Shown in pieces: positions 18,801 through 39,387 of a stretch of DNA of 64,000 nt; position 1 is the first letter of the stretch, and every line of letters starts with the position of its first letter. Source of the stretch: Longimicrobiales bacterium (GTDB taxonomy: Bacteria > Gemmatimonadota > Gemmatimonadetes > Longimicrobiales > Gaopeijiaceae); NCBI GenBank assembly GCA_965226375.1, contig CBDDCX010000007.1, forward strand, positions 576,001 to 640,000. The letters are read 5' to 3'. The notes below the pieces were generated by a model, which was not told the origin of the DNA, did no database searches, and worked only from the letters and a program-made list of their open reading frames with translations. Position numbers and translations under genes: made by a program.

Positions 18801-18897
18801 GGGGGCGGAGGGGGTCTGGTGGCCCCACTGGTCTTCAAAACCAGCTCGCCCGGCTAAACCCCGGGCTGGTGGGTTCGATTCCCACACGTTCCCGCCA
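18801..18897 (+). tRNA. selC: tRNA-Sec (anticodon UCA)
   Basis: 8-nt acceptor strand; 6-bp D stem GGGGTC/GGCCCC with 4-nt loop; CTGGT-CTTCAAA-ACCAG anticodon arm; long variable arm; GTGGG-TTCGATT-CCCAC; G discriminator + CCA. Confidence 0.93.
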
Positions 18898-19037: not shown

Positions 19038-19135
19038 CTAGAGTGGCAGCACCCGTCTCTCGGTGTCCAGTTCGCCGTGCAGCCTAGCCAGCTTGCCGAC
19101 GCCCTCCTCTAAGACCTCATGGTCGGCGATGGCGT
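19038..19135 (-). pseudogene. C-terminal remnant of a tyrosine integrase
   Basis: AIADHEVLEEGVGKLARLH resembles the helix after the catalytic Tyr; converges on selC. Confidence 0.5.
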
Positions 19136-20016
19136 GGGCTGTGGCGGGTTGGGAGAGGTCTGGCGAGCATCGCGGGGGCGTCTCGTCTGCCCACACTGTC
19201 GAAGGCAGACCTCGGTGCTGGCGGGAACCGTGTTCCACCGCACGCGCTCGCCCCTGCGTCTGTGGTTTCTCGCTGCCTGGGAGCTCACGAGCCAGAAATA
19301 CGGAGCCAATGCTCTCGGGCTCCAGCGCGTGCTCGGACTGGGAAGCTACAAGACAGCGTGGGTCTGGCTCCACAAGCTCCGCCGGGCCATGGTCCGACCG
19401 GATCGCGACCAGCTGAGCGGCGTTGTGCAAGTGGACGAGAGCTATGTCGGGGGCGTGGAGGCTGGAGTGCGGGGCCGCGAGACGATCAAGAAGGCCATCG
19501 TCGCGATCGCCGCCGAGGTCGACGGACGCAAGATCGGGAGAATACGGCTGCGTTGGGTGCCCGACCTCTCCGCTCCGGTTCTGCGAGGCTTCGTCAAGGA
19601 TAGCATCGCACCGGCAAGCACGGTGCATACCGACGGATGGCCAAGCTATCAGGGACTCGCCAAACTGGGCTTTCGCCACACGGTCACGAACCTCTCGACC
19701 TCCGGCGATCCCGCTCACGTGCTCATGTCGGCCGTACATCGGGTGGCGTCTCTCCTCAAGCGCTGGGTCCTCGGAACCCTCCAAGGAGGGATCGCCCGCG
19801 AACACCTCCCCTACTATCTGGACGAGTTCACCTTTCGCTTCAACCGACGCACATCCCGGGCTCGCGGCCTGTTGTTCTACCGCTTGCTTGAGCAGGCTGT
19901 TCAGTGTGCTCCCACGCCAGCTTCGGCCCTTTACCTCGGCACCGGACGTGGGAAACGGCCCGCAGAGCCCCGGTAACCACTATATCTTGGGGTCGGTGGA
20001 CTTAAGGGAATACCCC
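19136..20016 (+). mobile_element. IS1595-family element with 5' end deleted (transposase to 19976)
   Basis: CxxC zinc ribbon partly lost; VDESYVGG, HTDGW, YLDEFTFRFNRR; right end GGACTTAAGGGAATACCCC. Confidence 0.88.
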
Positions 20017-20147
20017 CTTAGACCCAATCCCCCTCGGGACTCCAGCTTTCGCAGCATTGAGCCGATATCTTGGGGTCGGTGGACTTAAGGGAATACCCCC
20101 TTAGACCCAATCCCCCTCGGGACTCCAGCTTTCGCAGCATTGAGCCG
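19982..20147. repeat. Exact 83-bp tandem duplication spanning the IS1595 end / kinase junction
   Basis: 19982-20064 is repeated at 20065-20147. Confidence 0.9.
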
Positions 20148-21426
20148 AGTCGGTGAGGGTCCGCGCCACTCCCCCCCCGAGCGGAACGACGCGAATCGAT
20201 CCGGCCACTCCAAAAGCTACCTCGCGACCGTCAGGAGAGATCACCGGGTCGCCAGCCCCTTCGGTGTTCCGGATCGGGGTGGCCTCCAATGCATCCCACC
20301 GCCTCAACCACAGCTGAGCTTGCCCGTCATCACTCACGCCTCTGGAGACCATGAGCGATCCATCGGGCGAAAGGTCCAATGCTGCCCGCGTGGGATGAAT
20401 AGACTGAGCTTCTGCTATCAGCACCGAAACCCGTGTGACCGACTCTGGAGGCTCTGGCGGCTCGGGACCCAATAGAGACCAGCCGAAGGCGAGCGTGTAC
20501 AGGAGCGCCAAGCTCCAGCCGACGGTCGTGAGAGTGTTCCACGGACTCGCGGCCGCTCCATCGACTCCGACAACCTCTTCCCGATACCGGAAGTGCTCAT
20601 CACCGAGCGCCCTTACGAACTCCTGGGCCGAAGCGAACCGATCCGCAGGAAGCTTTTCCAGTGCCTTCCGGATCACTGCGTCCACGTTCGCCGGGATCGA
20701 GGGACGCTCATCCGTGGCCGACACGGGCTTGCCCGCGATGATCTTGCCGAGCACCGCTTGGGCTGTCGTCCCCGGGTAGGGCGGATCTCCGACTAGCATC
20801 TCATACAGGACAGCACCCAGAGCGTAGGTGTCTGTGGAGGCCCCTACGGCCTGGTCCCCCGTGGCCTGTTCCGGGCTCATGTAGAACGGAGTGCCCAGGC
20901 TGAGTCCGGTCTCTGTCAGGCGACCCCCACCAGCCGCCCCCACCGCCAACGCGATTCCGAAGTCTGCGATCAAGGGTCGCCCCTCGTGCAGCATGATGTT
21001 GGCGGGCTTGATGTCTCGGTGGATGATCTTGTTGCGATGCGCGTAGTCGAGTGCCTCGGCCAGGTCCGTCGTGATCTTTACCGCTTCGTCCACGGGAAGC
21101 TGATGCTCACGGTCTAGACGATCACGTAACGACTCGCCCTCGATGTAGGGCATCACGTAATAGAGGAAGCTGTCGGCTTCGCCTGAATCGTGGAGTGGAA
21201 GGATGTTCGGGTGGGTTAGGTTGGCGGTGGTCTTGATCTCGGCCAGGAATCGCTCGGCCCCAACCACGGCGGCCAGTTCGGGCTTCAGGACCTTCAGGGC
21301 CACCTTGCGCTCGTGCTTCAGGTCCTTGGCCAGATACACCGTAGCCATCCCGCCCTCACCGAGTTCACGCTCGATGGCGTAGCGGCCTTACAGGGCGGCG
21401 TTCAGGCGGATGATGGGATCGGACAT
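20101..21426 (-). pseudogene. Hanks-type Ser/Thr kinase + TM + TolB-like repeats; nonsense codon 13 and C-terminus cut by IS1595
   Basis: MSDPIIRLNAAL*GRYAIERELGEGGM; VALK, HRDIKPAN, DFG, YMSPEQ; propeller ends abruptly at the IS. Confidence 0.88.
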
Positions 21427-21439
21427 GGGCACTCCGAGG

Positions 21440-21500
21440 TCAGACTGCGGTCAACATCCGAGAGCGGTCCGGTAGGCGCAAGCAGAACCCCGTCAGACGC
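21440..21500. repeat. Repeat R3 copy 1 (61 bp, upstream of kinase)
   Basis: 59/61 identical to 33119-33179. Confidence 0.9.
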
Positions 21501-21617
21501 TTGAACATTCCGTGCATTTAAATGATCCTGCCCCGTCCCCCTGTCACATTCGGAGCTCCTAATTCGTTTCCATGCACGACGAGAACTCTTAGCCAGGACT
21601 GAGATGCGGAGTGCCCA

Positions 21618-22109
21618 ATGAAATCGACAGGTTTTGTCCTTGCGGTGGTGGTTGCGGTGCTGGTGGGGTGCGATGACAACAACGCGATCGGCTCTGACGT
21701 GGGACGCGCCCATGACTCGACCGGCCCCGTGATGGATCGCTTGGGTGGGCAACGCGCGCTCTGGGAGGCCCAGGGCCTCGAGGACTACACGTACGGCGTA
21801 CGGCGGGTCTGCCTTTGCCCCTTCAGGGAGGGAGTCCGAGTCACCGTGGTGGACGGAGCCGTGGCTGGAGCCACCGACCTCGTGACGGGAGAGGTGTTGG
21901 AGCCCACGGAGGTGCAGTGGTACCTGACGATCGACGGCCTCTTCGATCTCGTACAGGCCGCATACGAAGGAAACGCCTACGAGGTCCAGGTGGAGTTCGA
22001 TGCGAGCCGTGGCTACCCGACCCGCATCTTCATCGACTATGCGGATATGATCCTGGACGAAGAGGTGAGCTTTACGCTCTTGGCTGATGTCCGGGCTCTT
22101 GGAAACTGA
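21618..22109 (+). CDS. DUF6174-like lipoprotein
   Basis: Lipobox LVGC; WEAQGLEDYTY..RVCLCP..TIDGLF..GYP. Confidence 0.7.
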   Translation: MKSTGFVLAVVVAVLVGCDDNNAIGSDVGRAHDSTGPVMDRLGGQRALWEAQGLEDYTYGVRRVCLCPFREGVRVTVVDGAVAGATDLVTGEVLEPTEVQWYLTIDGLFDLVQAAYEGNAYEVQVEFDASRGYPTRIFIDYADMILDEEVSFTLLADVRALGN

Positions 22110-22188
22110 CGCCCAGCACCGAGCCCGACGATGAACCTCCGTTTTGAACGAGGGTTTTCCGCCTCGATCCCAACGTCAGAACGGATGA

Positions 22189-22764
22189 GTGATGGCTGAC
22201 ATGCCTTTGGGGCCTTACCTAGCTTACTGGCCTACGCTCATCTTCTGGTCTGCCATTGTTGTGGGCCTGGTGGCCTCCGGCCTCGGACTCGTCCGGCAGC
22301 GCGCATTCTGGCTGATCGGCGGTGCGATCTTGGTGTTACCGGCCTCGGGGTATTTGACCGCGACGCCGCGGTTTCAGTACGTCGGATGGGTGCCCGTGGC
22401 GTGCCTGCTCTTGGCCGCATACGCCGTGCGGCGGGGCAAGGTGTGGATCGCCGGGCTATTGGTCGCTGCCGGGGTCATCTTCTGGAGCGTGGTGGCCTCG
22501 ATGCTCTCCTTTCCGATCCTGCTCCATGTGCTGGTGGCGGGCGCAGCTATCGGGCTCGTGGCCGCAGGTCACCTCACCTGGAAGGTGGCGGTGTACGTCC
22601 CAATCGGAATCCTCGGGGCCTTCGTTGGCGCCCTGCTGAGTTTTGGCGATGCGCCGTTGCTCATGCGGTACCCCTATCTCAACCCGTGGACGTTGTCCGT
22701 GATGGCGGCCGTCCTCCTCGTGACGGCTCTTAGGGTTGCGGACAGGAGTGTATTTGGCCGCTGA
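22189..22764 (+). CDS. Multi-pass membrane protein (C-terminal part resembles the GlsB/YeaQ family)
   Basis: About 6-7 hydrophobic helices; IGILGAFVG. Confidence 0.6.
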   Translation: MMADMPLGPYLAYWPTLIFWSAIVVGLVASGLGLVRQRAFWLIGGAILVLPASGYLTATPRFQYVGWVPVACLLLAAYAVRRGKVWIAGLLVAAGVIFWSVVASMLSFPILLHVLVAGAAIGLVAAGHLTWKVAVYVPIGILGAFVGALLSFGDAPLLMRYPYLNPWTLSVMAAVLLVTALRVADRSVFGR

Positions 22765-22892
22765 CGGCTCGCCCCCGTGGCTTGAAAGGCCGTTATCGGC
22801 CTGGTGATTTGACGAGCCACAAGTCGAGGAGTGCGAGTCGATTGCTGCGGCTGGACCGATCCAAACCCAGAGCAAATCCACGAGTACATGCC

Positions 22893-22938
22893 CATGCGCT
22901 CAAGCTATGGGTGATGCTGAGGTTGGGCGATGGCTGGA
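22893..22938. repeat. Repeat R1 copy 1 (46 bp)
   Basis: CATGCGCTCAAGCTATGGGTGATGCTGAGGTTGGGCGATGGCTGGA, identical at 25874 and 34191. Confidence 0.95.
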
Positions 22939-22955
22939 GGTGGTCTGTGGGTCAG

Positions 22956-25055
22956 CTAGAACTGTTGCCGCTTAAAGCGTTGCCCGAGCATCCTCAAGCC
23001 GGCGGGTTCTCCGATGACGGTGAGTCGATCGCCTTCCGCGAGCACCGTCGCACCCCACGGAACGATGACCTCCGCCTCACGGCTCACCAGAGCGATCAGT
23101 GTGCCCGCGGGCATGTGCACCTCTCTAAGGGCGAGACCGATGAGTGACGCGGCGGGAGTGCCGGACTCCAACGTGAGGGCCAACACTCTCTCTTCCCGAA
23201 GCACGGCCTCCTTGAGCTCCTGGTGATTGGACGCCGACAGCCACGCCTCCATGAAGTCGTCCCGGTCCACTCGGCCGGCGATCTGAGCCAGGATGCGGAG
23301 GTGCTGGCCGGTCTTCGTCGCTGGACTGACCAGGAAGAAGACCGCCCGGACCGGCTCGGGCTGCTCCTCCGCCGCCTCTGCGAAATCTGCGTGAACGTCC
23401 ATCTTGATCCCGTCGATACATCGAACAAGGACCATCCGCGAGGATTCGATGCTCTTGAGGCGGAGGTGGGGGAGCGCCACTCCATTGGAGACGGGCATCA
23501 CGCCCTCAGCCGTGCCCTTCAGGAAGCCCTCGCCCAGCTTCTTGGCCGACGTATCGCACGTCTCGGCCAGATAGGCCGCTGCTTCCCATATGATGTTGCT
23601 GAAGCTCGCGCCGCCTGATATGTCGATGATCGCGGCTGACGCCACCGCCTGCGCGAAGGGATGCGCGTCGCGGAGGCCCTCCTCGTTCATGATTTCCCAG
23701 AGCTCGGGGTCGATGTCGACGTCGCGCTGGCGCCCGAGCCTCTCGAACATATGGTAGATCGCCCCTTCGCGGTCCACCCGGTCGCGGGCGTAGTAGGTAT
23801 ACCAGATGGCGCCGAGGGCGATGAGCCCTCCAGTGAACAGGCTGGGGAGGAGTCCCATCTCCACGACCATCCAGAAGGGGACCACGACACCCAGGACATG
23901 AAGCCAGGGGTAGAAGGGGGAGCGGTAGCCCGGGTCGTACGATTCGATGCGACTCTCCCTCATCACGATCACCGCCAGGCAGCTCAGCCCGAACATCAAG
24001 AGTTGGAATGCTCCAGCGAGCTTGGCGATCTTGGTCGGGTCGAACAGCACGACGAAGGCGAGGATCAGCGCGACTGTGGTGAAGATGGCGTACATCGGCG
24101 TTCCACGGGCCTGGATCTTCGAGAAGAACCGGGGGAGCACGTTGTCACGGCTCATGGCCAGGGGATACCGAGACGCACTCAGGACGGCCGCGTTCGATAC
24201 GGATGAGAAGGCGAGGACCGCCGCCGCCGTCACCAGGATTCTCCCCCATGGCCCCACGAGTGCATCGGCCACTGTAGCAACCGGCGTCAGGTCGCCCCCG
24301 TCCCGTGCCAGGACGTCCGCCGAAACCACCCCCACCATGACCGCTGTGCCCACGGAGTACACCAGGATGGCGGTGCCGAAGGCCAGGAACATTCCTAGGG
24401 GAAGATTTCTCTCAGGGTGGCGGACTTCCTCCGCTATGCTGGCCACCTTGGTGAGCCCCATGTAGCTGACGATGACGAGGCCCGCAGTGTTGACCACCGA
24501 CACCGGCGCCTGACTGAACACGCCGGCCAGATTGCCCGGCTCGACGTGCAGAAGCCCCGTGCCCATGAACCACGCCAGGATCAACAGCAGGGCAACGACC
24601 ATGAGCCCCTGGAACCGAGTGGCCTCCTTCGCTCCCAGGACGTTGACCATACCGAACAAGACGGCGAAGACCACCGCGATAGGCACTACGTTGAGTTCGG
24701 GGAGGAACAGCCGCAGATACGCCCCGATCCCGATGAGGGCGAAGGCGGCCTTGAGGGAAAGTGCGATCCAGGTCCCGAAGCCCCCCACCGTTCCCATGAG
24801 GGGTCCCATGCTACGATCCAGGAAGTAGTACACGCCCCCGGCTCGCGGCATGGCCGTAGCTAACTCCGCCATACTGACCAGGCCGGGAACCAGCAGGAGA
24901 CCGGCCAGAACGTAGGACAAGGGCATTCCCGGCCCGGCTCCGGCGGCCGCCAGCCCCGGAAGCAGGAAGAAGCCCGAGCTCAGCGTGGCACCCGTGGCGA
25001 TGCCGTAGACGTCCCAGAGGCCCAGCTCCTTCTTGAGGAGCTTCGGTTTTCTCAT
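22956..25055 (-). CDS. APC amino-acid permease fused to PTS EIIA(Ntr/Fru)-like and TrkA-C/RCK_C domains
   Basis: AELATAMPRAGG, AEEV..P.RNLP; GVALPHLRL (phospho-His); RCK_C LAEGDRLTVIG. Confidence 0.88.
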   Translation of the reverse strand: MRKPKLLKKELGLWDVYGIATGATLSSGFFLLPGLAAAGAGPGMPLSYVLAGLLLVPGLVSMAELATAMPRAGGVYYFLDRSMGPLMGTVGGFGTWIALSLKAAFALIGIGAYLRLFLPELNVVPIAVVFAVLFGMVNVLGAKEATRFQGLMVVALLLILAWFMGTGLLHVEPGNLAGVFSQAPVSVVNTAGLVIVSYMGLTKVASIAEEVRHPERNLPLGMFLAFGTAILVYSVGTAVMVGVVSADVLARDGGDLTPVATVADALVGPWGRILVTAAAVLAFSSVSNAAVLSASRYPLAMSRDNVLPRFFSKIQARGTPMYAIFTTVALILAFVVLFDPTKIAKLAGAFQLLMFGLSCLAVIVMRESRIESYDPGYRSPFYPWLHVLGVVVPFWMVVEMGLLPSLFTGGLIALGAIWYTYYARDRVDREGAIYHMFERLGRQRDVDIDPELWEIMNEEGLRDAHPFAQAVASAAIIDISGGASFSNIIWEAAAYLAETCDTSAKKLGEGFLKGTAEGVMPVSNGVALPHLRLKSIESSRMVLVRCIDGIKMDVHADFAEAAEEQPEPVRAVFFLVSPATKTGQHLRILAQIAGRVDRDDFMEAWLSASNHQELKEAVLREERVLALTLESGTPAASLIGLALREVHMPAGTLIALVSREAEVIVPWGATVLAEGDRLTVIGEPAGLRMLGQRFKRQQF

Positions 25056-25177
25056 GGCCTCAAGTACCCTCGCCGTCCTTCATGACGATGCCCTCAATCT
25101 CATAACGGCCCTCCAGTGCTGCGTTCAGGCCGGATACCTGATCAGACATAGCCGCAAGATGCGTCTAGGGTGTGCGA

Positions 25178-25288
25178 GGCAGCAAGCAGAAGGTCCGTAG
25201 ACGCGTGTATTCGCGTTCCAAGCGTCTCCGGGGTTTATTCGGTATCCTGGGTTAGGCTGGAAGGCTCTCGTGGCTTAGAGGGGCGTTA
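25178..25288. repeat. Repeat R2 copy (with part of R3) upstream of the permease
   Basis: Aligns to 33154-33263, including GGGGTTTATTCGGTATCCTGGGT and CTCTCGTGGCTTAGA. Confidence 0.85.
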
Positions 25289-25297
25289 ACAACGAGA

Positions 25298-25673
25298 TCA
25301 CCCACCCTCCGGCCGGTCGCCCGTGATGGTCAACAGGAGCGCCGTGTCCTCGAGGGCTCGGATGTCCTGGGCGTGGCCCGGTCCGAAGAAGAGGACGTCC
25401 CCCTGGCCGATCTCGAACTCCTCGTGACGTACACGGTAGTGGAGGCGCCCCTGGAGCGCCTGGAGGGTCATGGGCGAGGCGGCGTGATGGGTTGCCCACC
25501 TCGACGCCCTCGGCGATCAGCGTGAGGGTGAGCCTGAGCGGCCCCGCTTTGACGAGGGTCCGGCCGACCCGGCCGCTCCGGACGTATCTCTCGTCCCGGC
25601 GGAGCTCGGCGATCTGCTCGTCCAGGTCGAAGGTGAGGTTCTCTCCGGTGAGAGCACGGGTGATGGACGACAT
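25298..25673 (-). pseudogene. Cupin-domain protein, frameshifted near 25490
   Basis: GRTLVKAGPLRLTL...; a second frame gives HHAASPMTLQALQG...FFGPGHAQDIRALEDTALLLTI. Confidence 0.75.
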
Positions 25674-25873
25674 GGAGACCTCCGGGCCGGAGAAGCGACG
25701 GGGCGGTGATGTGAAGGATAGTCGAGCTGAGGATCGGGCGCGAGCAGGTGTGGAAGATGTGCCGCGGCGCGCTGGCGCGAGCCAAACATGCCAGCAAGTG
25801 TCGTTCGGACCGTACCAGATGCGGCGAGCGAAATACCCCCTGCCCTTCGGTCGGTTGCCGGCGTTACCCTGCC

Positions 25874-25919
25874 CATGCGCTCAAGCTATGGGTGATGCTG
25901 AGGTTGGGCGATGGCTGGA
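25874..25919. repeat. Repeat R1 copy 2
   Basis: Identical 46-mer. Confidence 0.95.
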
Positions 25920-25923
25920 TGGA

Positions 25924-26248
25924 CTAGTTCGTGATGGCCCAGCACTCCACAGGTTCAGCGACGTTCTTGAGTTGGTACTGTCCCAGTGGCTGCAAGACGC
26001 CAGGTTCGCCTAACCGCTCCTTCACAGCGGCGCTCACCACCACTTGCCCCGGCTCGGCGATCCCCTCAAGCCTGCTGGCGACGTTGACCGCGTCTCCGAA
26101 CACGTCACCGGCCTGGCGCCTGGCAGTTCCCGCCTGCTGCACCGAGAAGGCATCATCAACGGTCACGACCTTGCCGTTGTAGAGCACCAGATCACGGCCT
26201 CCCTTACGGCGCAGGCCGCGAGGGACAGGAGAGCGAAGCCTAAGATCA
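25924..26248 (-). pseudogene. Chimeric fragment: amidohydrolase N-terminus joined to class III adenylate/guanylate cyclase C-terminus
   Basis: DLVLYNGKVVTVDDAFSVQQA then GDVFGDAVNVASRLEG...LKNVAEPV. Confidence 0.7.
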
Positions 26249-26280
26249 TGCGGGTGACGGGAAACACAGAGAGTCCTTCT

Positions 26281-28053
26281 CTACGGTCGTTGCTTGACGT
26301 GGGGGGCCAACAGATCCTGCGCCTCCGCACGTGGAAGAGCGACCCGGCTCTCCACTGCGCGAGTGATCTGCCGGATGGCCACCACCGCTTGGGCTGCCCG
26401 CCACTCCAGCTCCTCGATCAGAGGCACGCAGTACGTAGCACCCGGCCCCTCGGCGCGGGGTGAGGGGTCCTCTTTGCCCCACCGGAGCGTGGTCCCCCGA
26501 GGCGGTTGCGCGATTCGGGAGCGGCGCTGATCCAATCCGCGCCGAAGCGACCAGTGCCGATCAGTCGGGCCCTGGGAACGTGCATCGCCCCGATGGCGGC
26601 GATGCGGCGTGCGAAGGTGCCCCACGTCACCACGACTCGGGTGTCCTCCAGGACCACGACTCGCAGAGCACAGCCCCGCAGGAGCGCTCGTCCGCTTGCG
26701 CCGAGGCCGTCGACGGTCGCCAAGATCTGCGAGAGCTCAGGAAGGAGAAAATCTCGCTCATACGCCACCGGACCGATGTCACTGACGAGTCGAACGATGT
26801 CCGGCCGCCAGAGGTCGTACGCGAACGTCGCCACGAGTTCTCGAATGGTTTCGGGCTCCTGTCTCACGATGAAGCGAGCCGCTAGATAGTCCGTCAGGTT
26901 CGGATGGATGAACTCGTAGCGTCCTCCTTCTTGGGTCACCACGCCCACCGTCTGCTCCAGGTCTTCGATCAGACCGTCGACCCCCCCCCCCCCCCCCCCC
27001 GGAAAATCGCCCACCGCCCCGGCCATCGGAGGCCCGAAGAACGCGTTCCACCTCAGGCGACGGGAACGAGCTCTCGCCCGCCGGCGCGAGGTGGATCGCG
27101 ATGCCCTCGAGAGGAGCCTCGAGCTCGTCCAACTCCACCCCGGTGCACGTGACCCGACGAAAGTTCGGCTTCTTGTCGTCCTGGTCGTGAAAGAGCGCCC
27201 GGAGCGCCTGACGGTAGAACACGTGCGGGCTGGCGTCCGCTTTCCACTCGTCGTGGGTCATGAACATGAGCTGCGGAAGCAGGGGATTTCCGGCGAGCCT
27301 GGTCATGCTCGCCCCCCCGGCGTCGGCCAGGAAGGCGGTGAACTTCTCCTTGTGTGCTCCGTCCGGTGCCGCACGATCGATCATGTCGAGCGTTTGCTCG
27401 CGTCTCATCGGCCGAACGCGCAGCACGCGGAAGCTGTCCCACGCCAGTGCGGCTCGGAACGGTCTGGAGCTCACGATCATGGGGCAATCGCTGTAGCGGT
27501 CACGGAGATCCGCGATGGCCTGTGCCACGGCGCCCGCCCGCCCGGGTGGCAGCTCGTCGAGCCCGTCCATGAGGAGCACGAGCTGCCCCCAGCGAGCGAA
27601 CTCGCCGAATGTATCTCGCGTCATGTCGAGGCCGTCCCTCACAGCCGCGGACCACAACGAATCTGTCAGGCCCACCGCGGAAAGGCCGCCGTTCTCGTCT
27701 ACTGCCTGCCCTACGCGCCGCAGCGGTACGTAGACGGGCAGCCAGGCCGCGTCATCCAAGGCATCGAGCAGAAGGTACCGGAGGAGTTGGGATTTTCCGC
27801 TTCCTGCCGCACCGATCACCACCGTGTGCAGCGAGCGAGACAGCAACCCCTGCAGGGTCGCGGGCTCCCTGGAGAACGGGTCGTCGTACTTCCACTGTAC
27901 TACGTTGTAGTCCCGCCGTATGGACGGCTCCGACTCGAGCGTCACGTCGCTGTAGGTGTTCCACATCAAGACGGGCACATCGGGGCTGCAGACCGTCTTG
28001 ATGCGCTCGTACTTTTCCCTGAGCCGGCCCCTGTACGTCTCTCGGAGACTCAT
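26281..28053 (-). CDS. NACHT (STAND) NTPase, frameshifted at a G20 tract and again near 26470
   Basis: GAAGSGKS, LLMDGLDE, SSR, NPLL, YEFIHPNLTDYLAA. Confidence 0.82.
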
Positions 28054-28161
28054 CGCACACGGATCCCAGCTACGCCGACCACTCGCTCAACGGTGTGGGG
28101 GCCCGAGGGGCCTTCGTTCAGAAATGGGAGAGTGTTGGACATCCACCGGTTCGCTGCTTGG

Positions 28162-29511
28162 TTTAGCGCCCCCGATTTCTCTGGACAGTAGATTGGCAAA
28201 GACAGCGGGTCCAGAGAGAAAGGGACGTGATGGCCCAGAAGCCGAGGGAGAACAAGGCGACCGCAGGTCGTGAGAAGGTACCCGAGCGGTGGAGTGCCCA
28301 GCAGAAAACGGAGGTGGTGCTGCGCCTGCTACGGGGTGAGGACCTGGTGGAGGTCAGCCGCGAGGTACAGGTCTCACCGCCGGAGCTGGAGGAATGGCGG
28401 CGGGTGTTCCTGGAGACCGGTCAGCAGGGACTGAGACGCCGGGGCCGAGACCCTGGAGAACGGGAGCTGACCCGGACCCGGGCGAAGCTGGGAGAGTTGA
28501 CGATGCGACTGGAGCTTGCGAGAGAACTCCTGGAAAAAAGGGGGTACGGGGACGAGCTGGAGAAGCTCTTGAAGCGCGGACGCGGGTGAGTCCGGGGACA
28601 GGGCGGCTCTACCCTCTGACGATGATCTGCGAGGTCTGGCGGGTGGGGCGCTCGACGGTCTACGCGGCCCGAGATCGAGAAGAGAGCGACGGGCCGGCAG
28701 GGCTGAAGAAGCGCGGACCGAAGACGAAGCTGAGCGACGAGGAGTTGGTGGAGGAGATCCGACAGGTGCTGAAGGAGAGCGACTTCCTGGGCGAAGGCCA
28801 CCGGAAGGTCCGGGCCCGTCTGAGAGCCAAGGGGATCGGTGTGGGCAAGAACCGCGTGCTGCGGCTGATGCGGGAGAATGGGCTGCTGGCCCCCGTACGG
28901 CGCGGAAAGCACCCGCGTGGGGACCGGAGCCACAGCGGCCGGATCACGCGACGGATGTGCCGAACGAGCTGTGGGGTACGGACGCGACGCGGTTCTACAC
29001 GAAGGAGGATGGGTGGTGCTGGTTCTTCGTGGCGGTGGATCACTGCATCACAGACGTGGTGGGCTGGCACGTGGCGAAGAAGGGCGATCGGTGGGCAGCG
29101 CTCGAGCCGATCCGCCAGGGTGTACGAACCCACATGGACGGCTACGCGCCCAAGATCGCTCTGGGGCTCGGCCTACGGCACGACTGGGGCCCTCAGTACA
29201 CCGCCCATCAGTTCCAAGGAGAGCTGGCCTGGCTCGGGATCCGCTCGACGGCCTCGTACGTAGGAGAGCCGGAGTGCAACGGCGTCGCGGAACGCTTCAT
29301 GCGGACGCTGAAGGAAGAGTGCCTGTACCTCCACGACTTCGAGAGCCTCGAGGAGGCCAGGCAGGAGATCGATGCGTTCATCGAACGCTACAACCGCGGG
29401 TGGCTCCTGGAGCGGCACGGGTATCGGACCCCGGCCCAGGTCCGTCAGGAGCTCACCCTGAAGGCGGCATGATTAGGCCGCCGACTTGTCCAGGAAACCG
29501 GAACCGGTACA
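28162..29511 (+). mobile_element. IS3-family element (orfA 28227-28589; orfB to 29472) with 5-bp target duplication CTTGG
   Basis: Imperfect TIRs; WGTD, RHDWG, NGVAERFMRTLKEE; CTTGG at 28157-28161 and 29512-29516; extra frameshift near 28950. Confidence 0.92.
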
Positions 29512-29750
29512 CTTGGCATGATAGAACGACGCCAACTTTCCATATATCATGCGGTGTAACGATTAAGGATTGTTTCCACACTCTAGGCGCGGCGGACATC
29601 GGAGTCGAGGGTGTAGGCGAGTGTGGAAACGATCAGTTGAGCTGAGCCGCTACGCGGTGGGTGGGGCTATGGGGATTGGAGAGTCCGGAGTCGAAGCGGC
29701 GAGGTCAGCCGGAGAGCTTGGTCGACAGGAGCGCGGCAAGCGGAGGCAAC

Positions 29751-29797
29751 GGCGGAGAACAATCTCCCCCGAGTCCTTTCGGACGCCAGTTTTCAAG
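29751..29797 (-). other. Degenerate 3' half of tRNA-Ser(UGA); att-like scar
   Basis: Minus strand CTTGAAA-ACTGG-C-GTCC-GAAA-GGAC-TCGGGGG...CTCCGCC; T-loop lost. Confidence 0.55.
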
Positions 29798-29966
29798 TTC
29801 CTGCCTGGCTTTTGCGTCTGGCTGTGTCTAGCCCAATATCGTTGCGAGGCACGGGTTTTCGGCGGGCGCCGTTCTCCGGGAGTTGTGCTGACTTACGTGC
29901 TTTTCAGGGTCCGCGTTGGCAAAACGTTGCCAAGAGGTTTCCACCGCCGCCCCAAGGTTACCAGCC

Positions 29967-32900
29967 TCAGTCGCTGGCAACTGCATTCGCGACGGCCTCG
30001 ACGTCATAGTTGCCCAGAGCGGAGCCGCCGGCACTCCTCGCACTCCTCATCTGGCTATCCCATCGGTAGTAGGTCTCGCGCAATTCGGGACTGATAAATA
30101 GACCCGCGAAGGGAGCAGCTGGCCGAAAAGGCCAGTGCACGTCAGTGGTCTGGAAATGTGCCCAATACGGCTCGCCCGGGGAGGCACTCCTCCAGTTCCA
30201 GTAATCCCGGTGCAGTTCCACCGACGAGGCGCAGTTCACCCCGGCATATGCGTCGCGATACGTATCCACGCCTCGATCCGTCGCGCTGCCCGCGTTGGGG
30301 TTCGAGGTAAACATCGCCGTTTGATAGCCACCGGCCCTCATGTGCTGGGCCATCGTCATCGCCTGTTCAGGAAGTCCTCTGCCACCTGTTCCACGGAGAA
30401 CGCTGTCGTGTAGCGACGTAACGAAGGAACGCGTGGAAGGGTTCGTGTAGCTCGAATTACTGTAGGCGTTCTCGAAGACCGCCCCCTCGGCCGCCAGTCG
30501 TGCGATGTATGGTGTTGTGCGACGGTTGTAACCGTAGACGCTCATGAAGTCCGCGCCGGCACTATCGATGATGTAGAAGATGACGTTCGGCTTGCGGGTG
30601 TTCCTCGAACCGCTGAGGGCCCTCTCTGCCAACGTACGTGAGACACGGAGCACGCAAAGAATTAGAGTAGGGCGAAGGCAGAGAAAACGAACATGTTGGG
30701 ACTGCGAGAGAGAATGGCAGAGAATGGTAGTGCCCCTGGAACCGGGGAGGCCAAGCGAAGCGCGGCAGCTCCTGCGGACCCGGAGGTAGTAGATAGGCCG
30801 CTACGGCGGCGGTTCAGTCCGTCGTACAAGCTGCGGATCGTCGAAGAAGCGGACCGGTGCACCGAGCCCGGCGAGGTGGGTCAAGTCCTGCGGCGAGAGG
30901 GCCTGTACTCGTCGCACCTGACGACGTGGCGCAAGGCGGCGCATAGCGGGTCGCTGAAGGCCCTGTCGAAGAAACGCGGCCGCAAGCCGGAGCGAAATCC
31001 GCTGGATGAGAAGGTACGCAAGCTGGAGCGGCGAAACGCACGGCTCGGGAATGAGCTCAGGAAGGCACACCTGATCATCGACGTGCAGGGAAAAGTTGCG
31101 GGGCTGCTGGGGATAAGCCTCGACGACGGGACAAACTCTTGAAGGCGGCCGATGAGCTGGCTAAGCACGTCGGTGTAAAACCGGCGTGCGCGGCCCTCGA
31201 GGTCTCCCGATCGACGTTGTACCGTCGTCGAGGCCCATCAACCGGGCAACAGCAGCCCCGCCCGACGCCCGCCCGGGCATTGAGCGAGACGGAACGAGGC
31301 GAGGTCTTCGACACGCTGTGTTCGGAGCGGTTCGTGGACCGCTCACCCGCCGAGGTGGTGGCCACGCTGCTCGACGAAGAGGTCTACCTGTGCAGCGAAC
31401 GCACGATGTATCGTGTTCTGGCCTCCGAGGTGCCGGTTCAGGAACGCCGGGCGCAGCGCACCCATCCCGAGTACAAGAAGCCCGAGTTGATGGCCACGGC
31501 GCCGAACCAGGTGTGGTCCTGGGATATCACGCGGCTGCTCGGGCCGAAGAAGTGGAGCTATTACTACCTCTACGTCATCATGGACATCTACAGCCGCTAC
31601 GTCGTGGGCTGGATGGTGGCGGACCGGGAGAACTCGGCCCTGGCCGGCCGGTTGATCCAGCAGAGCTGCCTGAAGCATGGCGTCCAGCCCCGGGTCCTGA
31701 CCCTGCACTCGGATCGGGGAGCTCCAATGACGAGCCAATGCACCGCTCAACTTCTCGCTGACCTCGGCGTGACCCGCTCGTTGAGCCGGCCTCAGGTGTC
31801 GGATGACAACCCGTTTTCCGAGGCTCAGTTCAAAACCTTGAAGTACCATCCCTCGTTTCCCGGACGGTTCGGGGATCAGGGCCAAGCCAAGACGTTCTGT
31901 CGATCGTTCTTCCGCTGGTACAATGCCGAGCACCGCCATGGCGGCATCTCGATGCTAACCCCCGAGCAGGTCCACTTCGGGAACGCCGATCAGGTCATTG
32001 ACAGGTTCCGGGGTGGGGGCGACCCAGTGCGCTACGGTCCCAACCCGATCCGAAGTCGCGGTCAGCACTAGGCTCACCTCTTCGCCCTCGCAGCGGGTCA
32101 GATCCAGGCTACGCTGTACCCAATGTTCGCTGTCGGAGTAGGTTTCCTCCAGGAGCGTGACCGCGTCACGACCGGGCGGTTGCACCGCAATCGCGAAATC
32201 CACCGGCGCATCGGCGCGAACAACCCCCAACCCGACGTCCAAACGTCCGCCATCGGGTACGCGCACGCGGTACTCCAAGCGTGCTGGCGCGTGCGTGTAC
32301 AGCGCCCGTGTTTGAATGTCGCCACTGAACGTGTGGGCGACGCCGACATCCGCGTCAGCGTAGGCGGCCTCCTTAGGGATGAGACTGACCGAAAGAATGT
32401 CAATGCTGGTTGGTACCCGTCCACGTTGCGATCCCGCATAGAACAGCAGGCCGAGCTGCTTCCACGGTTCATCCCAGTCTTGGCCTTCTCGAACTGGAAG
32501 GAGGTACGTGTGTACCAATCCGTCCGTGATGAGGCTCGCTTCATCTCCGAAAAATCTGAACGGCCAGCCGCCTGCCGGTGCATATTCTGAGTCAGGAGTT
32601 TGGGAGGGCTCAGACCGCTCGGTCAGGTTGAACACCAGGCCTACGGAAGAGATTCCTGGCTGAGCTCGAGCACGCACCGAGACGTAGGCCCAATCTTGAG
32701 GTCTCAAGTCGGGCAGGTCGATGTAGATTTGCCCGTCATGTACAAGGCGCCCGGTCCGGGCCATGCGGTAGTTCGCTTCGGTGATGTCGACGCGCAATGC
32801 ATCGTCGAGCCGTGTCACCCGCACCGGCGTCGATTCCGCATAACCAACCGGTTTCCACTCGGGCTGGGGCTCGTCGAAGCCCCACTCCAAGGCCTCGGGC

Positions 32901-33103
32901 ACATCCGTGGGGATCTCGGAGCCTTCGATGGTCGCCGCGTCCAGATGATCTTCAAGATGGAGCGGGACGTCGGCCGTCAGGACCATGGAGCCGGATGGCG
33001 AGCCTGAGCAGCTTGCGAGGGCCAGGCTCAGCACGGTAGCCGGAAAGATGAGAGAGGCGACGCGACCAAGGACAGCGTTCAGACGAGCGACGGAATCGGA
33101 CAC
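29967..33103 (-). pseudogene. Sulfatase-like lipoprotein, interrupted by IS3 and 3'-truncated
   Basis: Removing the IS rejoins HWVAPT-LSGSRNTRKPNVIFYIID; YGYNRRTTP, TNPSTRS, HFQTTDVHWPF; C-terminal half missing. Confidence 0.82.
30620..32010 (+). mobile_element. IS3-family element (orfA 30693-31142; orfB from 31139, 3' end shortened) with GGG target duplication
   Basis: WSWDIT, LHSDRG, NPFSEAQFKTLK; ends CCCTCTCTGCCAAC / GTCATTGACAGGTTCCG. Confidence 0.9.
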
Positions 33104-33118
33104 GGGCGAACTCCAGAA

Positions 33119-33263
33119 TCAGACTGTGGTCAACATCCGAGAGCGGTCCGGTAGGCGCAAGCAGAGCCCCGTCAGACGCCTGTATTTGCGTTCTGAGCGT
33201 CTTCGGGGTTTATTCGGTATCCTGGGTAGGCCGGGACACTCTCGTGGCTTAGACGGGCATTAT
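33119..33263. repeat. Contiguous R3+R2 copy upstream of the sulfatase-like gene
   Basis: 33119-33179 matches 21440-21500; 33154-33263 matches 25178-25288. Confidence 0.9.
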
Positions 33264-33336
33264 CGGGCTAGCGACCTGTGCCTATGAACCCTCTTGGTGT
33301 TGCACTTCAAACTTGATCCCAAGCAGATTGCCCGAC

Positions 33337-34101
33337 CTACCGAGTCGTGATCGCCGCCTCCAAGATCGGGATCAGAGAGATAGCCTCATCAAGATTGTCG
33401 GCGACCATGCGCTCCAGGAAGACGCCGTAATGCCGTTCGGCGTTCAACTCTTGAAGATTGGACCCAACTCGTAGGGACTGAAGGGCCTCCGCCACGAGTG
33501 CTGGCTCCACAGTCAGGACAAGGGTCTCTTCATCCTCCCGGGCAAGACCTCTGGGCGCCCCGACAGAAGTCGTGCGAAACGCTCCGAGCAGCTGAGGTGA
33601 AACGGTTCGATATATGAGGGCCGGGTAATCGGTGGTTCTGGTTGCCGCCCTGTTCCTGCGGTGTCCGGCGTTCGTATGGTAACTGAGCACGGCCTGCCGG
33701 ACAGTTGAACTCTTAATAAGGTTGAGGCCGCCGATCGAGATTAGTTCGTCAAAGGCCGCGGAGTTCAAGGGAAGTTGGCTCCAGCCGTACCCTTGGCTGC
33801 CCTCCAACGCGATCTGGAAGCTCAGCGTGTCGCCCGGCGCCAAGCCGTCCCTAAGGGCTGCGCCCACAAGCTGGAGTGCCTCTCGCTTCTCGTGCATCCC
33901 GGTCAGTTGAAACGAGAATGAGGCGGTGTCCTGACGAAGATCCTCGAGGAGTCGCTCAAGAAAGTCCTGCTCGGCGACGCGATCCTGACGTTCTTCCGCC
34001 CAACCGTTCACCCAAAGGGCCACCAGCACTCCGAGCACGATAACGACAAACTCGCCCAACACTCGCATCCAACTCAAAGTTGGCCTAGACGCGGTAGCCA
34101 T
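33337..34101 (-). CDS. Hypothetical protein with N-terminal TM (DUF6090-like), cassette-like
   Basis: GEFVVIVLGVLVALWVNGW; AFDELISIGGL; lower GC; preceded by GTTAGGT core site. Confidence 0.7.
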   Translation of the reverse strand: MATASRPTLSWMRVLGEFVVIVLGVLVALWVNGWAEERQDRVAEQDFLERLLEDLRQDTASFSFQLTGMHEKREALQLVGAALRDGLAPGDTLSFQIALEGSQGYGWSQLPLNSAAFDELISIGGLNLIKSSTVRQAVLSYHTNAGHRRNRAATRTTDYPALIYRTVSPQLLGAFRTTSVGAPRGLAREDEETLVLTVEPALVAEALQSLRVGSNLQELNAERHYGVFLERMVADNLDEAISLIPILEAAITTR

Positions 34102-34129
34102 ACTCCCTTCCGTTCGAGTAGCAGAATCT

Positions 34130-34165
34130 ACCTAACGGATCGCGATTCTTGTGCGCTGCTAAGAT
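34130..34165 (-). other. Right half of an attC site (R' = GTTAGGT)
   Basis: Minus strand GCGCACAAGAATCGCGATCCGTTAGGT, 28 bp before the ATG of 33337-34101. Confidence 0.55.
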
Positions 34166-34190
34166 GCGATCCGCAAGCTGCCCAGTCCAA

Positions 34191-34236
34191 CATGCGCTCA
34201 AGCTATGGGTGATGCTGAGGTTGGGCGATGGCTGGA
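34191..34236. repeat. Repeat R1 copy 3
   Basis: Identical 46-mer. Confidence 0.95.
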
Positions 34237-34278
34237 TGGGACTGATGCGAGGCCGCTAGCTTTTCAGTTTGACGACGA

Positions 34279-34674
34279 TCACCACGCCTTCCACGACGAC
34301 ACGAGTACCCTGAGGCGGACGCCCAAGGCCACGAGGCAATACACCCCGACCACACCGACGTAGAGCGGTTCCAGCCAATCGTGCGCCACGCCGAATCGAT
34401 GCGAGAGCTGATGCACTGCGACGTTGATCGCCATCAGAGCAGTAAGTGCGACAAGCACCTGGACTGTACGTGCAGGCGTCCGTCGAAGTGCAAGGAGTGA
34501 AGCCACCGTGCCAGTCGCGACCAGCACGAATCCCGGAAGGTCCGGCTGTTGCACGGCGGCGGAAATCGGGATCGAAGCAAGTACGCCGGCAGCACTTGCC
34601 GCGAACCCTACCTCAAGAATTCGCAGGGACTTGACCTCTTAGGCGACGTTCAAGCGGGTGACAGGGTCGGACAT
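34279..34674 (-). pseudogene. Small membrane protein fused in frame to a kinase-type leader, TAA at codon 12
   Basis: MSDPVTRLNVA*EVKSLRILEVGFAAS... continues in frame into ORF 34279-34554. Confidence 0.6.
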
Positions 34675-34709: not shown

Positions 34710-34809
34710 ATCTAACGATTCTGCATTTTTGCTGCGGGCTAGGATGCCCACAGCACACGCAGTGTGCGCCCCAGATGTTGATCCCGCCAGCAGCAAATGC
34801 TTGTTAGGT
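34710..34809 (-). other. Integron attC recombination site (100 bp)
   Basis: ACCTAAC-AAGCA-TTTGCTGCTGGCGGG...CCCGCAGCAAAAATGCAGAATC-GTTAGAT; imperfect palindrome just after a stop codon. Confidence 0.8.
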
Positions 34810-34827: not shown

Positions 34828-35349
34828 TCAGTCCTTGGCCGAAGTCCTGCCCTTCCATTTCTCGGCGAGTCGAACCCAGCGGACGGCCATCGGACCCGAG
34901 TACGACATTTGGCCCTCCGGGTATATCTCGGCCAGTTCCTTGGGGTCGTGTTCGGAGGCCCACGAAATCAGCGGTGCCATGGCATCAGACAAGGAGACTT
35001 CGCCCCATGACGTTTCATGGAGTTGATGGGAGATAAGGCCATTCGAGGAGATGGTGAAGACGGACCGAAAACCAAGGGTGCCGATTCCAATTAGGTCGAG
35101 AAAGTCGTTTCCTTCGGAGCCCTGGATTGTGACCATGCGTGGAGATTCGTCAACGACTTGCCAGTCCAGCCTGCCGTTCGCGCCCGCGTCCCACTCCAGT
35201 GCGGTCGCTGCCTGACTTTTCGACATCGTGAACCCGGCCCCCGCGAACTCCATTTCGAATTCTGGCGCAAGGCAGGCCAGGGCATTGAGAGTAGCGTGAT
35301 CGACCAGGTGATCGAGGTACAGACGAACGACGGCCAACGCGCGATCCAT
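34828..35349 (-). CDS. Hypothetical (SnoaL/NTF2-like) cassette gene
   Basis: Lower GC; RBS GGAGG; bounded by GTTGGGT core and attC; fold assignment is tentative. Confidence 0.65.
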   Translation of the reverse strand: MDRALAVVRLYLDHLVDHATLNALACLAPEFEMEFAGAGFTMSKSQAATALEWDAGANGRLDWQVVDESPRMVTIQGSEGNDFLDLIGIGTLGFRSVFTISSNGLISHQLHETSWGEVSLSDAMAPLISWASEHDPKELAEIYPEGQMSYSGPMAVRWVRLAEKWKGRTSAKD

Positions 35350-35382
35350 CTTTTACCTCCCGACTTTGCTGGGCTACCCAAC

Positions 35383-35924
35383 ACAACTTGAAAGCACGCC
35401 CCCTGTGGGTACCGTGGAGTTGCGAAACGACCATGGACCACAGCAGAGGGCGGCTCTCATGAAGCGGAACACCAAGTATGTGGGACTCGACGTGCACCAG
35501 GCAATGACGGTGGCGACGGTTCGGAGCCAAGGGGGACGAGTGATCGCGCGCAGCGTGATCGAGACGGGGGACGCATCGATCACGGAGTTCTTCAGTGCGA
35601 TGCGCGGGTCGGTGCATGTGGTGTTCGAGGAGAGAACCCAGGCGCAGTGGCTCTACGACCTACTGAGTCCTCGTGTGGATCGGGTGGTCGTGTGCGATCG
35701 CAGAGGCGAAAAGCGTTCGGGCAACAAGGGCGACCAGGTCGATGCCGACGAGCTGTCGGAGCGGTTGCGGTGTGGCGGGCTGCGAGCGGTATACCACGGC
35801 GCACACGGCCGATCTGATCTCAAGGAGCTGACTCGAGGCTATCGCAACCTCGTCGAGGACGGGACGCGCGTGATGCTGCGACTCAAGGCACTCTTCCGTG
35901 CGCGAGCCATCCGAACCACGGGCG
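35383..35924 (+). mobile_element. IS110-family element, 5' fragment (transposase from 35459)
   Basis: YVGLDVH, VVFEE, KGDQVDA (DEDD RuvC); truncated at the junction with hsdR. Confidence 0.85.
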
Positions 35925-39121
<3,197 letters not shown>

Positions 39122-39387
39122 CCAGGCTCAGAGGTCCCCGCGGAAGGCGCGGGATTGCAGGGAGGCGAAGAGGGTGTCGAGTTCGGCCAGGTGCGCGCGC
39201 TTCGGTGGCTTCAGAGCCTTCTCGACCTTGTAGACACGCTTGAGCAGGCACTCCAGCGCGTAGCGGTGCATGGAAGCAGGACGCCCGTGGGTCGCCGAAG
39301 ACATGCCGCTCCGACGAAACTTGCACTCTCCGCCGCGTGTGGGAACTCCTGTTTCAGGGCGAAGTTCTCGGAGACTTCCATAGCGGC

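Follow-up and report, generated by a model that had tools for sequence, protein, structure and literature searches.

Likely gene front ends recur as repeats beside unrelated genes in genomic islands of a Longimicrobiales bacterium

Origin of the repeats

Three repeats, R1, R2 and R3, recur among unrelated genes in the window, i.e. the whole 64,000-nt stretch of Longimicrobiales DNA analysed here. As judged from the sequence, they are likely leftover gene front ends (putative promoters plus first codons), copied dozens of times in genomic islands. R2-R3 corresponds to the sequence upstream of a multi-copy Ser/Thr kinase gene together with the start of that gene, and R1 to the region 5' of a gene encoding a 94-aa orphan protein, the ATG of which forms the 3' end of R1. 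We favour, with moderate confidence, the reading that front ends of one multi-copy unit have been fused with unrelated DNA at dispersed points, plausibly serving as promoter-bearing recombination anchors. The reading draws on parts seen directly: the parent unit, its truncated copies, the scattered breaks, the origin of cargo from cassettes and a core operon, junctions shared across species, and mosaic R3 sequences.

The unit is intact in a relative, genome G041, where R2 and R3 precede a gene for a 904-aa kinase with PD40, followed by R1 and the 94-aa ORF. In full, the kinase follows R2-R3, a DUF6090-like gene is often next, and R1 and the orphan complete the order. A further sequence, R0, is the 5' end of genes of the DUF6090-like family; in intact units, their start and the kinase stop overlap. 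Five genomes, one of them named Longimicrobiales, have fragments of the unit in islands linked to tRNAs. Copy number along the unit, counted in G000 and at 11 loci of G041, is maximal over both upstream regions. On the orphan side (G000), 11 copies cover positions -30 to 0 of the ATG, and 4 reach +10; on the kinase side (the 11 G041 loci), 22-24 copies cover -50 to +55 of the start, against 3-4 beyond +145. Both R1 and R3 belong to the 5' side of known parent genes, and none of the repeats is a fixed element end. The view of the earlier note that they supply fixed 5' and 3' flanks is not supported: their boundaries are ragged, and R1 does not represent a 3' flank. The other possibility raised there, that repeats only mark duplicated flanking genes, is right as to their origin in duplicated genes, but those genes have mostly been lost and replaced. 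For annotation, many 'kinase' starts predicted in these genomes are scars, not kinases.

Organization of the window

Genes, repeats and attC sites lie on the minus strand unless marked plus, and are taken in reading direction. An integron-type cassette ORF (34828..35349; 173 aa, no Pfam match) sits next to a full attC-like site (34710..34809), the bottom strand of which folds (z -2.8). The fourth kinase start of the window, at 34674, is a remnant of the first ~11 codons followed by a stop (34642..34674), and precedes a membrane-protein cargo (34300..34641). Kinase start and cargo form a block found in-frame and whole in G002, with 87% identity against 77-79% for flanking core genes. R0, the 5' end of the DUF6090-like family, follows in a deleted form (34259..34304). 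Module 1 opens with R1 copy 1 (34191..34236; TAGCTT at 34205-34200, ATG at 34193-34191), to which the 3' half of an attC is joined within the site (34130..34178). Next come a DUF6090-like cargo gene (33337..34101; 254 aa, E=0.0013, below cut-off), the intergenic R2 copy 1 (33190..33266) and, downstream of it, R3 copy 1 (33104..33189; TTGCGC / GATGTT and GGAG). The latter leads into an in-frame fusion of kinase start and sulfatase (29967..33103), the first ~12 codons of which are kinase-derived; an IS3 element (30620-32000) splits the sulfatase.

In module 2, a nucleotide-cyclase C-terminal fragment (25924..26187) stops 5 nt short of R1 copy 2 (25874..25919), where the orphan is lost within 4 nt of the ATG. 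A cupin-like cargo (25275..25673; matched in its C-terminal frame only, E=0.00024, below cut-off) carries a frameshift near 25492. It is followed by R2 copy 2 (25182..25288), a second kinase upstream type with ~20 kinase codons (25090..25200; CATCTT 6 nt before the ATG at 25149), and core-type operon cargo comprising amidohydrolase-like last codons and an amino-acid permease (22956..25089). Module 3 includes R1 copy 3 (22893..22938), the first ~70-80 nt of the orphan gene (22822..22895), a left-end stub of R2 (22776..22815), two opposite-strand cargo genes, for a membrane protein (22189-22764, plus) and a DUF6174 protein (21618-22109, plus), R3 copy 2 (21427..21503), and a Ser/Thr kinase pseudogene (20101..21426), which has TAA as its codon 13 and is interrupted by IS1595 near 20100. 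The island is bordered by tRNA-Sec (18801..18893, plus). The genome is IS-rich and eroding, and hosts many active IS families.

Much of what the earlier note had described holds. R1 is an identical 46-mer at all three positions, R2 and R3 lie where they had been placed (the stub at 22776-22799), the half attC is real, matching positions 50-96 of the 96-position attC model, and unrelated genes do reside between the same conserved sequences, in shuffled blocks. Among the gene labels, sulfatase domain, permease, DUF6174 and kinase were recovered, while those for the DUF6090-like and cupin genes stayed below cut-off. The partial R3 assigned to module 2 is absent past the first hexamer, and R2 is joined there to the second kinase upstream type (25149-25200). 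R1 follows a stop closely in the window (5-43 nt), but other copies lie up to >1 kb away. Nor is a strict R1...R2-R3 order general, as 56 of 102 alternations compare with a shuffle mean of 51.7 (P=0.15).

Kinase starts and a proposed route of assembly

R2 of module 1 (33157-33236) and of module 2 (25182-25261) are 80% identical over 80 nt, and the R3 copies (33110-33182 and 21431-21503) 90% identical over 73 nt. The R3 hexamers TTGCGC / GATGTT and the GGAG ahead of the kinase start likely correspond to a promoter and an RBS. Two different spacer sequences occur in R3, both hexamers being retained around each, and G000 hosts all four combinations of spacer and leader (11, 3, 2 and 1), spacer length being fixed by the search pattern used. 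These mosaic variants point to recombination between copies. Kinase starts are truncated in 52 of 90 instances, at 35-368 nt and with no fixed breakpoint; in-frame continuation for at least 75 codons, seen in 13 of the 52, is about chance level.

According to the anchor reading, a one-off illegitimate join would set foreign DNA behind or before an anchor, plausibly by homology-facilitated illegitimate recombination during DNA uptake, by end joining, or by deletion. RecA-type recombination between anchor copies would then move and stack anchor-cargo blocks among islands and species. The remainder of the parent gene would erode, and the promoter core would stay, plausibly since cargo lacking promoters would be transcribed from it. 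Such a route would need no dedicated recombinase. Short microhomology at the illegitimate end is a feature of homology-facilitated illegitimate recombination. Fillers of 10-40 nt occur at many junctions, and microhomology could not be shown. The genes comEC, dprA, recA and Ku are present, a presence which does not show competence; among 41 relatives, 29 have Ku, with a distribution that does not follow that of the repeats.

Islands and probable exchange between species

A tRNA is found within 10 kb of seven of the 11 clusters, where 1.5 would be expected (P=0.0002), integrase genes adjoin clusters, and a partial tRNA follows R1 at locus L042. At the tRNA-Sec site of G001 and G002, other genes are found, with no synteny to the island of the window. 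The distribution of the repeats is narrow. Four other assemblies share the same architecture and junctions, and a junction of kinase start and 'REENR' is common to G000, G002 and G041. For blocks that genomes have in common, 18 of 142 ends coincide with anchors, versus ~9% expected, and crossover at anchors therefore rests on examples, not on enrichment. The next gene is on the strand of the anchor for 29 of 38 R1 and 23 of 30 R3 copies, with no excess over the island background (284/378, by rough gene calls). R1 and R3 patterns found no match in viral contigs, nor the R2-R3 pattern in plasmids.

These data bear on the view that the arrangement is passive wreckage, in which integrative elements targeting tRNAs deliver the unit along with cassette arrays, deletions fuse neighbours, and the repeats are not handles at all. 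The tRNA association, the partial tRNA, the adjoining integrases, the eroding and IS-rich background, and block ends not enriched at anchors would all fit. Yet wreckage accounts poorly for the mosaic R3 variants, for one cassette having different anchor joins, for a core-operon piece with a kinase start and R1 at its two ends, and for the near-identity of R1 across species (24 of 38 copies match at least 43 of 46 bases) where core genes are only 77-79% alike. We regard it as unlikely, though it is a serious competitor of the anchor reading. Rather doubtful, too, is a bolder proposal, a recombinase-free counterpart of the integron, in which anchors kept uniform across a few species would act as a community-wide platform harvesting, switching on and swapping cargo. 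Anchors would be R1, the R3-kinase start and the kinase end-R0, cargo would consist of integron cassettes and chromosomal fragments, and one tRNA island would swap it with another; the transcription start of R1 would be a hot spot of breakage.

R1 and the orphan gene

In 30 shuffled versions of the region, exact threefold repeats reach 11 nt at most, and window copies of R1 remain 92-100% identical when extended to 50 nt. R1 ends with TAGCTT, 6 nt and ATG. Genome-wide, TAnnnT peaks 6 nt 5' of the ATG (20 of 1143 starts, versus ~1-9 at spacings 8-34). Both hexamers are covered by 41 of 46 R1 copies, a figure biased by R1 itself being the query. By motif and spacing, R1 is a likely leaderless promoter; a scan with a stock promoter consensus called neither R1 nor R3.

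The orphan is a real gene, identity by codon position being 82/81/62%, but is broken in most copies. Its protein matched no Pfam or NCBIfam family; the best Atlas match (0.84) is a lead only, and the structure model (pLDDT 54.7) had no fold match at E<=0.001; no function is therefore assigned. In ~17 of 46 R1 copies the sequence switches to foreign DNA, and the orphan is lost, within 5 nt of the ATG; another 7 turn foreign within 17 nt before it. Flanking CDSs are non-paralogous at the ~17 copies which lost the parent at once, and still paralogous where kinase or orphan codons persist.

This break cluster is tighter than the kinase-side breaks, and erosion alone does not fully explain it. A dedicated capture system would have some enzyme nick or join DNA where R1 starts, and at R3, end processing then blurring the junction; the break cluster, R1 conservation far above that of orphan third codon positions, the narrow distribution, and an orphan protein of no known family would suit it. 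Still, there is no single crossover base, the kinase-side breaks are widely dispersed, structures and inverted repeats are missing, and the orphan is usually broken, all of which makes such an enzyme improbable.

Cargo and attC sites

Cargo includes permease, sulfatase, cupin-like, YccV-like and other genes, among which integron cassettes and the core-operon piece. The permease belongs to the core-operon piece, which is not a cassette and is 78% identical to a paralog at C5:42350-44467; the piece is bounded by a kinase start, in frame with the amidohydrolase-like last codons, and by R1. One YccV-like cassette has attC flanks at two loci, and R1 and/or R3 flanks at two others. Only part of the cargo has attC. 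An iterated profile yielded 51 attC matches, full and partial, most of which had been missed by two strict scans; 28 of them lie within 3 kb of an anchor, and all 28 are on its strand. Among five abutting anchor-attC joins, four enter the attC at model positions 17, 48, 50 and 65 of 96, and the fifth leaves at 89 (ambiguous); two more joins leave at 55 and 68.

Integrase-driven placement of cassettes at secondary (attG) sites lying by chance in these promoters might be invoked because many cassettes are near anchors and intI exceeds the cut-off in G000, G002 and G011, the three repeat-rich genomes among 10 of 41 relatives with such genes. Nevertheless, joins fall within attC, none of the seven clearly at the G|TT crossover, and the permease cargo is not a cassette. 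No intI adjoins anchors, the only one over cut-off being on contig C4, where no attC model match was found. The attG explanation is largely refuted, and very improbable.

Relation to known systems

Putative mobile promoters are highly similar non-coding sequences 5' of unrelated genes, within or between genomes, with no known mobilizer; most families are pairs, and how duplicated promoters move was left open (Nijveen, Matus-Garcia, van Passel 2012, PMC3575422). R1, R2 and R3 likewise lie 5' of genes with no less than 80% identity across stretches of 50 nt or more, but occur in dozens of copies, with a traceable parent unit, trailing parent-gene codons, tRNA-island clustering and integron-cassette cargo.

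T6SS effector-immunity arrays, which arise by homology-facilitated illegitimate recombination (PMC5361080), and Rhs C-terminal displacement (PMC2935791) resemble our islands in that arrays of conserved anchor pieces, variable in length, are attached to non-homologous DNA at no specific integration site. In those systems the cargo is a matched toxin tip or immunity gene, whereas here the anchor is a gene start, three different gene starts serve, and cargo is unrelated. In the tandem paralog cluster lpl of S. aureus, too, a shared conserved stretch is an island recombination site, and the evolving unit crosses gene boundaries (PMC2568036), but parts are shuffled among paralogs, while here foreign genes replace paralog bodies. 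Cassettes at attG and SALINs (bioRxiv 10.1101/2022.09.11.507474) similarly place promoterless cassettes beside host promoters outside integrons; our joins are found within attC, not where the integrase crosses over. Islands fed by tycheposons (bioRxiv 10.1101/2020.12.28.424599) are, like ours, additive and tRNA-adjacent, with integrase remnants and partial tRNAs. Tycheposons themselves have integrase, excisionase and replication hallmark genes flanked by att sites; the comparison here covered tRNA association and integrase matches, and our repeats are not att sites but internal gene starts. By analogy, the system is best read as plausibly working like putative mobile promoters plus anchored arrays of the Rhs/T6SS type.

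A literature search, out of reach of subscription journals and bioRxiv supplements, retrieved no publication on these repeats. As the parent unit can be seen alongside dozens of intermediate forms and junctions that cross species, promoter capture may be studied as a population process, and a route may be envisaged by which integron cassettes lacking promoters, and fragments of core operons, come to lie behind host gene starts with no need of the integrase.

Elements, RNA structure and assembly

Around 11 R1 copies, terminal inverted matches reach at most 3-4 nt, and flanking direct repeats 3-4 nt against a random mean of 4.1, with no target duplication. Copy number, sequence identity and the many active IS families could evoke a non-autonomous transposon, MITE-like or composite, ending at R1 and R2-R3, but with ragged ends, no inverted termini, 1 of 92 boundaries near the end of a multi-copy element, and known parent genes, this is hardly credible. 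The structure check suggested by the earlier note came out negative: folding of R1, R2 and R3 (z -1.4 to +1.1) and covariation do not exceed shuffles, no compensatory double changes occur in 11 R1 pairs, and Rfam detected nothing but tRNA-Sec between 18000 and 40000. An origin from cDNA, via seven identical reverse transcriptases, seems less likely, retention of the upstream hexamers arguing against it.

The repeats are not an assembly artefact. Short-read contigs of two further studies (X2, X7) contain module-1 cargo, extending from R2 in the direction of R1 (33198-34220 and 33200-34181; 0-1 differences), and in further contigs cargo is linked with R2 (at 25258) and with R3 (at 21464). Contigs reach at most 30 letters into R1 and none crosses it whole, so that phasing across R1 depends on the long-contig assembly. 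Misassembly, which this gap, the metagenome-type assembly, a poly-G tract and frameshifts might bring to mind, is next to negligible, as junctions recur in contigs of other studies and in the four other assemblies. Empty and filled forms both exist: a cargo-free form, in which 3 letters separate the R1 end from R3, is present in two of four runs, the four giving no cover over module-1 cargo. As to the frameshift in the cupin-like cargo, one base near 25492 is absent from contigs of all four sequencing runs (4/4).

The repeats are gene starts

As the earlier note had claimed, the three copies of R1 in the window are the same at all 46 nt, and the positions it had given for R2 and R3 are correct; the longest threefold repeat in shuffled sequence is 11 nt at most, versus 46 nt for R1. 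R3 is found immediately 5' of the start of a family of kinases opening with MSDP, and the final three bases of R1 are the ATG of a 94-aa ORF (the orphan), which displays identities of 82, 81 and 62% at the three codon positions and for which family searches gave no known family. R0, the stretch 5' of R1 in the window, is the constant 5' end of a DUF6090-like gene, itself fused to varied sequences. All these anchors are therefore gene starts.

An unbroken unit, made of R2, R3, a 904-aa kinase with PD40 repeats, R1 and the orphan, resides in the relative G041. In many copies a DUF6090-like gene precedes R1, its start overlapping the kinase stop. Such genes (C7:230665, C8:905631 and C8:911005 in G000, the genome holding the window, and the fetched loci L056 and L057) have about 25 N-terminal codons in common, the remainder being wholly different, and constitute a polymorphic family coupled to the kinase stop. 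Just 5' of R2, at L148:11676-11744 and nine other loci, lies a conserved 22-codon hydrophobic ORF end that lengthens the parent unit.

In the window three copies of this unit, each eroded, are stacked. Kinase codons open both the sulfatase region (module 1) and the permease region (module 2), and module 3 retains about 70 nt of the orphan. Among 90 kinase starts, comprising all those of G000 and those in loci fetched from four relatives, similarity to the kinase is lost within 400 nt in 52, with breaks at 35-368 nt that thin with distance, as seen with a search pattern from which shorter remnants escape. Orphan remnants of 22-286 nt are retained in 18 of 46 R1 copies. Breaks fall within R1 in 8 (one discounted as an internal deletion), and the orphan is lost at most 5 nt from the ATG in 20 as scored (three discounted, one at a locus edge and two in which orphan sequence reappears farther along). 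Counted along the unbroken unit, copies are most numerous over the two upstream regions. At least 85 of the 94 positions are covered in only 4 of the best 150 of 311 orphan relatives (profile search, read by eye), an incompleteness inflated by gene calling and contig ends.

Promoter-like features

R1 ends with TAGCTT, 6 nt and ATG, in agreement with the genome as a whole, where TAnnnT peaks 6 nt ahead of ATG; a hexamer at this distance is the layout of leaderless promoters. Both candidate hexamers are spanned by 41/46 R1 copies. In R3, TTGCGC and GATGTT flank either of two spacers, and GGAG follows; a second type of kinase upstream region, found in module 2, carries CATCTT 6 nt 5' of the ATG. 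A stock promoter scan called neither R1 nor R3, the next gene lies on the anchor's strand only at the background rate, and in-frame fusions (13/52) are not enriched.

Distribution

G000 (4.23 Mb, 8 contigs) contains 11 R1 and 21 R2-R3 matches, and 23 of 24 adjacent matches in its 11 clusters lie on the same strand. A tRNA gene is situated within 10 kb of 7 of these clusters (expected 1.5, P=0.0002), and tRNA-Sec adjoins that of the window. R1 is present in the relatives G001, G002 and G011, the match in G005 being R0 only, at six loci of one Longimicrobiales MAG (exact matches, which suggest the same order for G000) and in 4 metagenome contigs. Within a phylum-wide sample, one of the 70 family genomes carried R1; R3 was found in 15 of 151 family genomes and 6 of 81 genera, G000 counted. 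All these counts are limited by incomplete genomes. In four further sequencing runs R1 and R3 are plentiful, with many differing flanks, and in two of these the end of R1 is fused to R3 over three letters.

Cargo

Much of the cargo is integron-cassette DNA. An iterated attC profile gave 51 matches, and 28/28 attC sites within 3 kb of an anchor lie on the anchor's strand; the intI of G000 sits on a different contig. A YccV-like cassette is flanked by attC in G000 and the relative G002, and by anchors in G002 and G041. An array of four full attC sites lies immediately 5' of R2 and tandem kinases at L056:15804-18052 (G002). The permease cargo, 78% identical to a resident paralog, arrived with the final codons of its upstream neighbour, and has a core-type operon origin.

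How cargo may be joined to anchors

The repeats are real and their anatomy is explained; they are read as reuse of putative promoters and capture of genes through anchors, on an uncommonly large scale. As to the mechanism, we favour, as somewhat the more probable course, a process in which rare illegitimate joins would link foreign DNA to anchors, homologous recombination between anchor copies would spread the joined blocks, and a putative promoter core would be retained. Minimal mobile elements of Neisseria offer an analogy. Identical junctions recur in different species, and shared cargo is often 85-93% alike, versus 77-79% for core genes. At least 43 of 46 bases match in 24/38 R1 copies, and all four combinations of R3 spacer and leader coexist. 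Genes for uptake, recombination and end-joining (comEC, dprA, recA, Ku) are present. Shared blocks end at anchors in 18/142 cases, without clear overall enrichment, and no fixed anchor order was found.

The main rival, passive erosion of tRNA-integrated elements, is doubtful but deserves consideration. Because breaks in R1 cluster around the ATG, a dedicated enzyme is conceivable, though rather improbable. Insertion of cassettes by the integrase is unlikely: anchor-attC joins are located inside attC, and thus were not made by this enzyme. Also unlikely is a MITE, since neither inverted ends nor target duplications were found at the repeat boundaries; a multi-copy element is near 1 of 92. Misassembly, raised in the earlier note, is unlikely too: contigs of runs X1 (possibly the source), X2 and X7, the last two from studies other than X1, span the module-1 cargo, showing 0-1 differences, and extend into R2, and those of X1 and X2 also enter R1 by 30 letters.

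Known systems

Measured against putative mobile promoters (PMC3575422), the repeats show the required similarity and, in part, the required lack of paralogy: flanking genes are unrelated in copies that lost the parent gene at once, but not where kinase or orphan codons persist. T6SS and Rhs anchored arrays (PMC5361080, PMC2935791) work in a similar way, but their cargo is toxin-immunity genes, unlike here; the repeats are therefore not such an array. The island setting is similar to that of tycheposon-fed islands (bioRxiv 10.1101/2020.12.28.424599). The repeats do not behave as integrons, MITEs or structured RNAs, nor as attG insertions (bioRxiv 10.1101/2022.09.11.507474). R1, R2 and R3 show no folding beyond that of shuffles. 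Passages retrieved by term search from a survey of marine Gemmatimonadota (PMC11316326) included none on integrons, islands or promoters.

Neighbouring elements

An IS1595 element (19132-20147; about 45-58 copies in the genome) ends in an exact 83-bp tandem duplication (19982-20147), which includes kinase sequence. Two IS3-type elements (28161-29512 and 30620-32000) have about 10 and 30 near-identical copies, respectively; sulfatase alleles free of IS were present in all four runs compared. An IS110-like fragment (35367-35929, 7 copies) adjoins the cassette start, and an end resembling it also lies after two further attC sites; attC-targeting elements of the IS110 family are placed next to attC in the same way.

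The poly-G tract near 26990, in a NACHT-domain gene (26418-28053), is read differently by contigs of other runs, and is likely an assembly error. Type I restriction-modification genes occupy 35883-42029, with hsdR split and struck by an IS fragment, and a large repetitive surface protein with fibronectin-III, Ig and Calx-beta domains is encoded in overlapping frames at 42962-49034. Elsewhere in G000, an array of 17 tRNA genes (C2:1703-3908) lies on a 59-kb contig also hosting integrase and reverse-transcriptase matches, and seven identical reverse-transcriptase genes reside at seven sites of C6 and C8, two of them adjoining repeat clusters. At L042, L054:14221 and L056:7695 R1 is followed by a common direct-repeat motif, TTTGCATCCC, accompanied in L042 by a partial tRNA, possibly the end of an integrative element.
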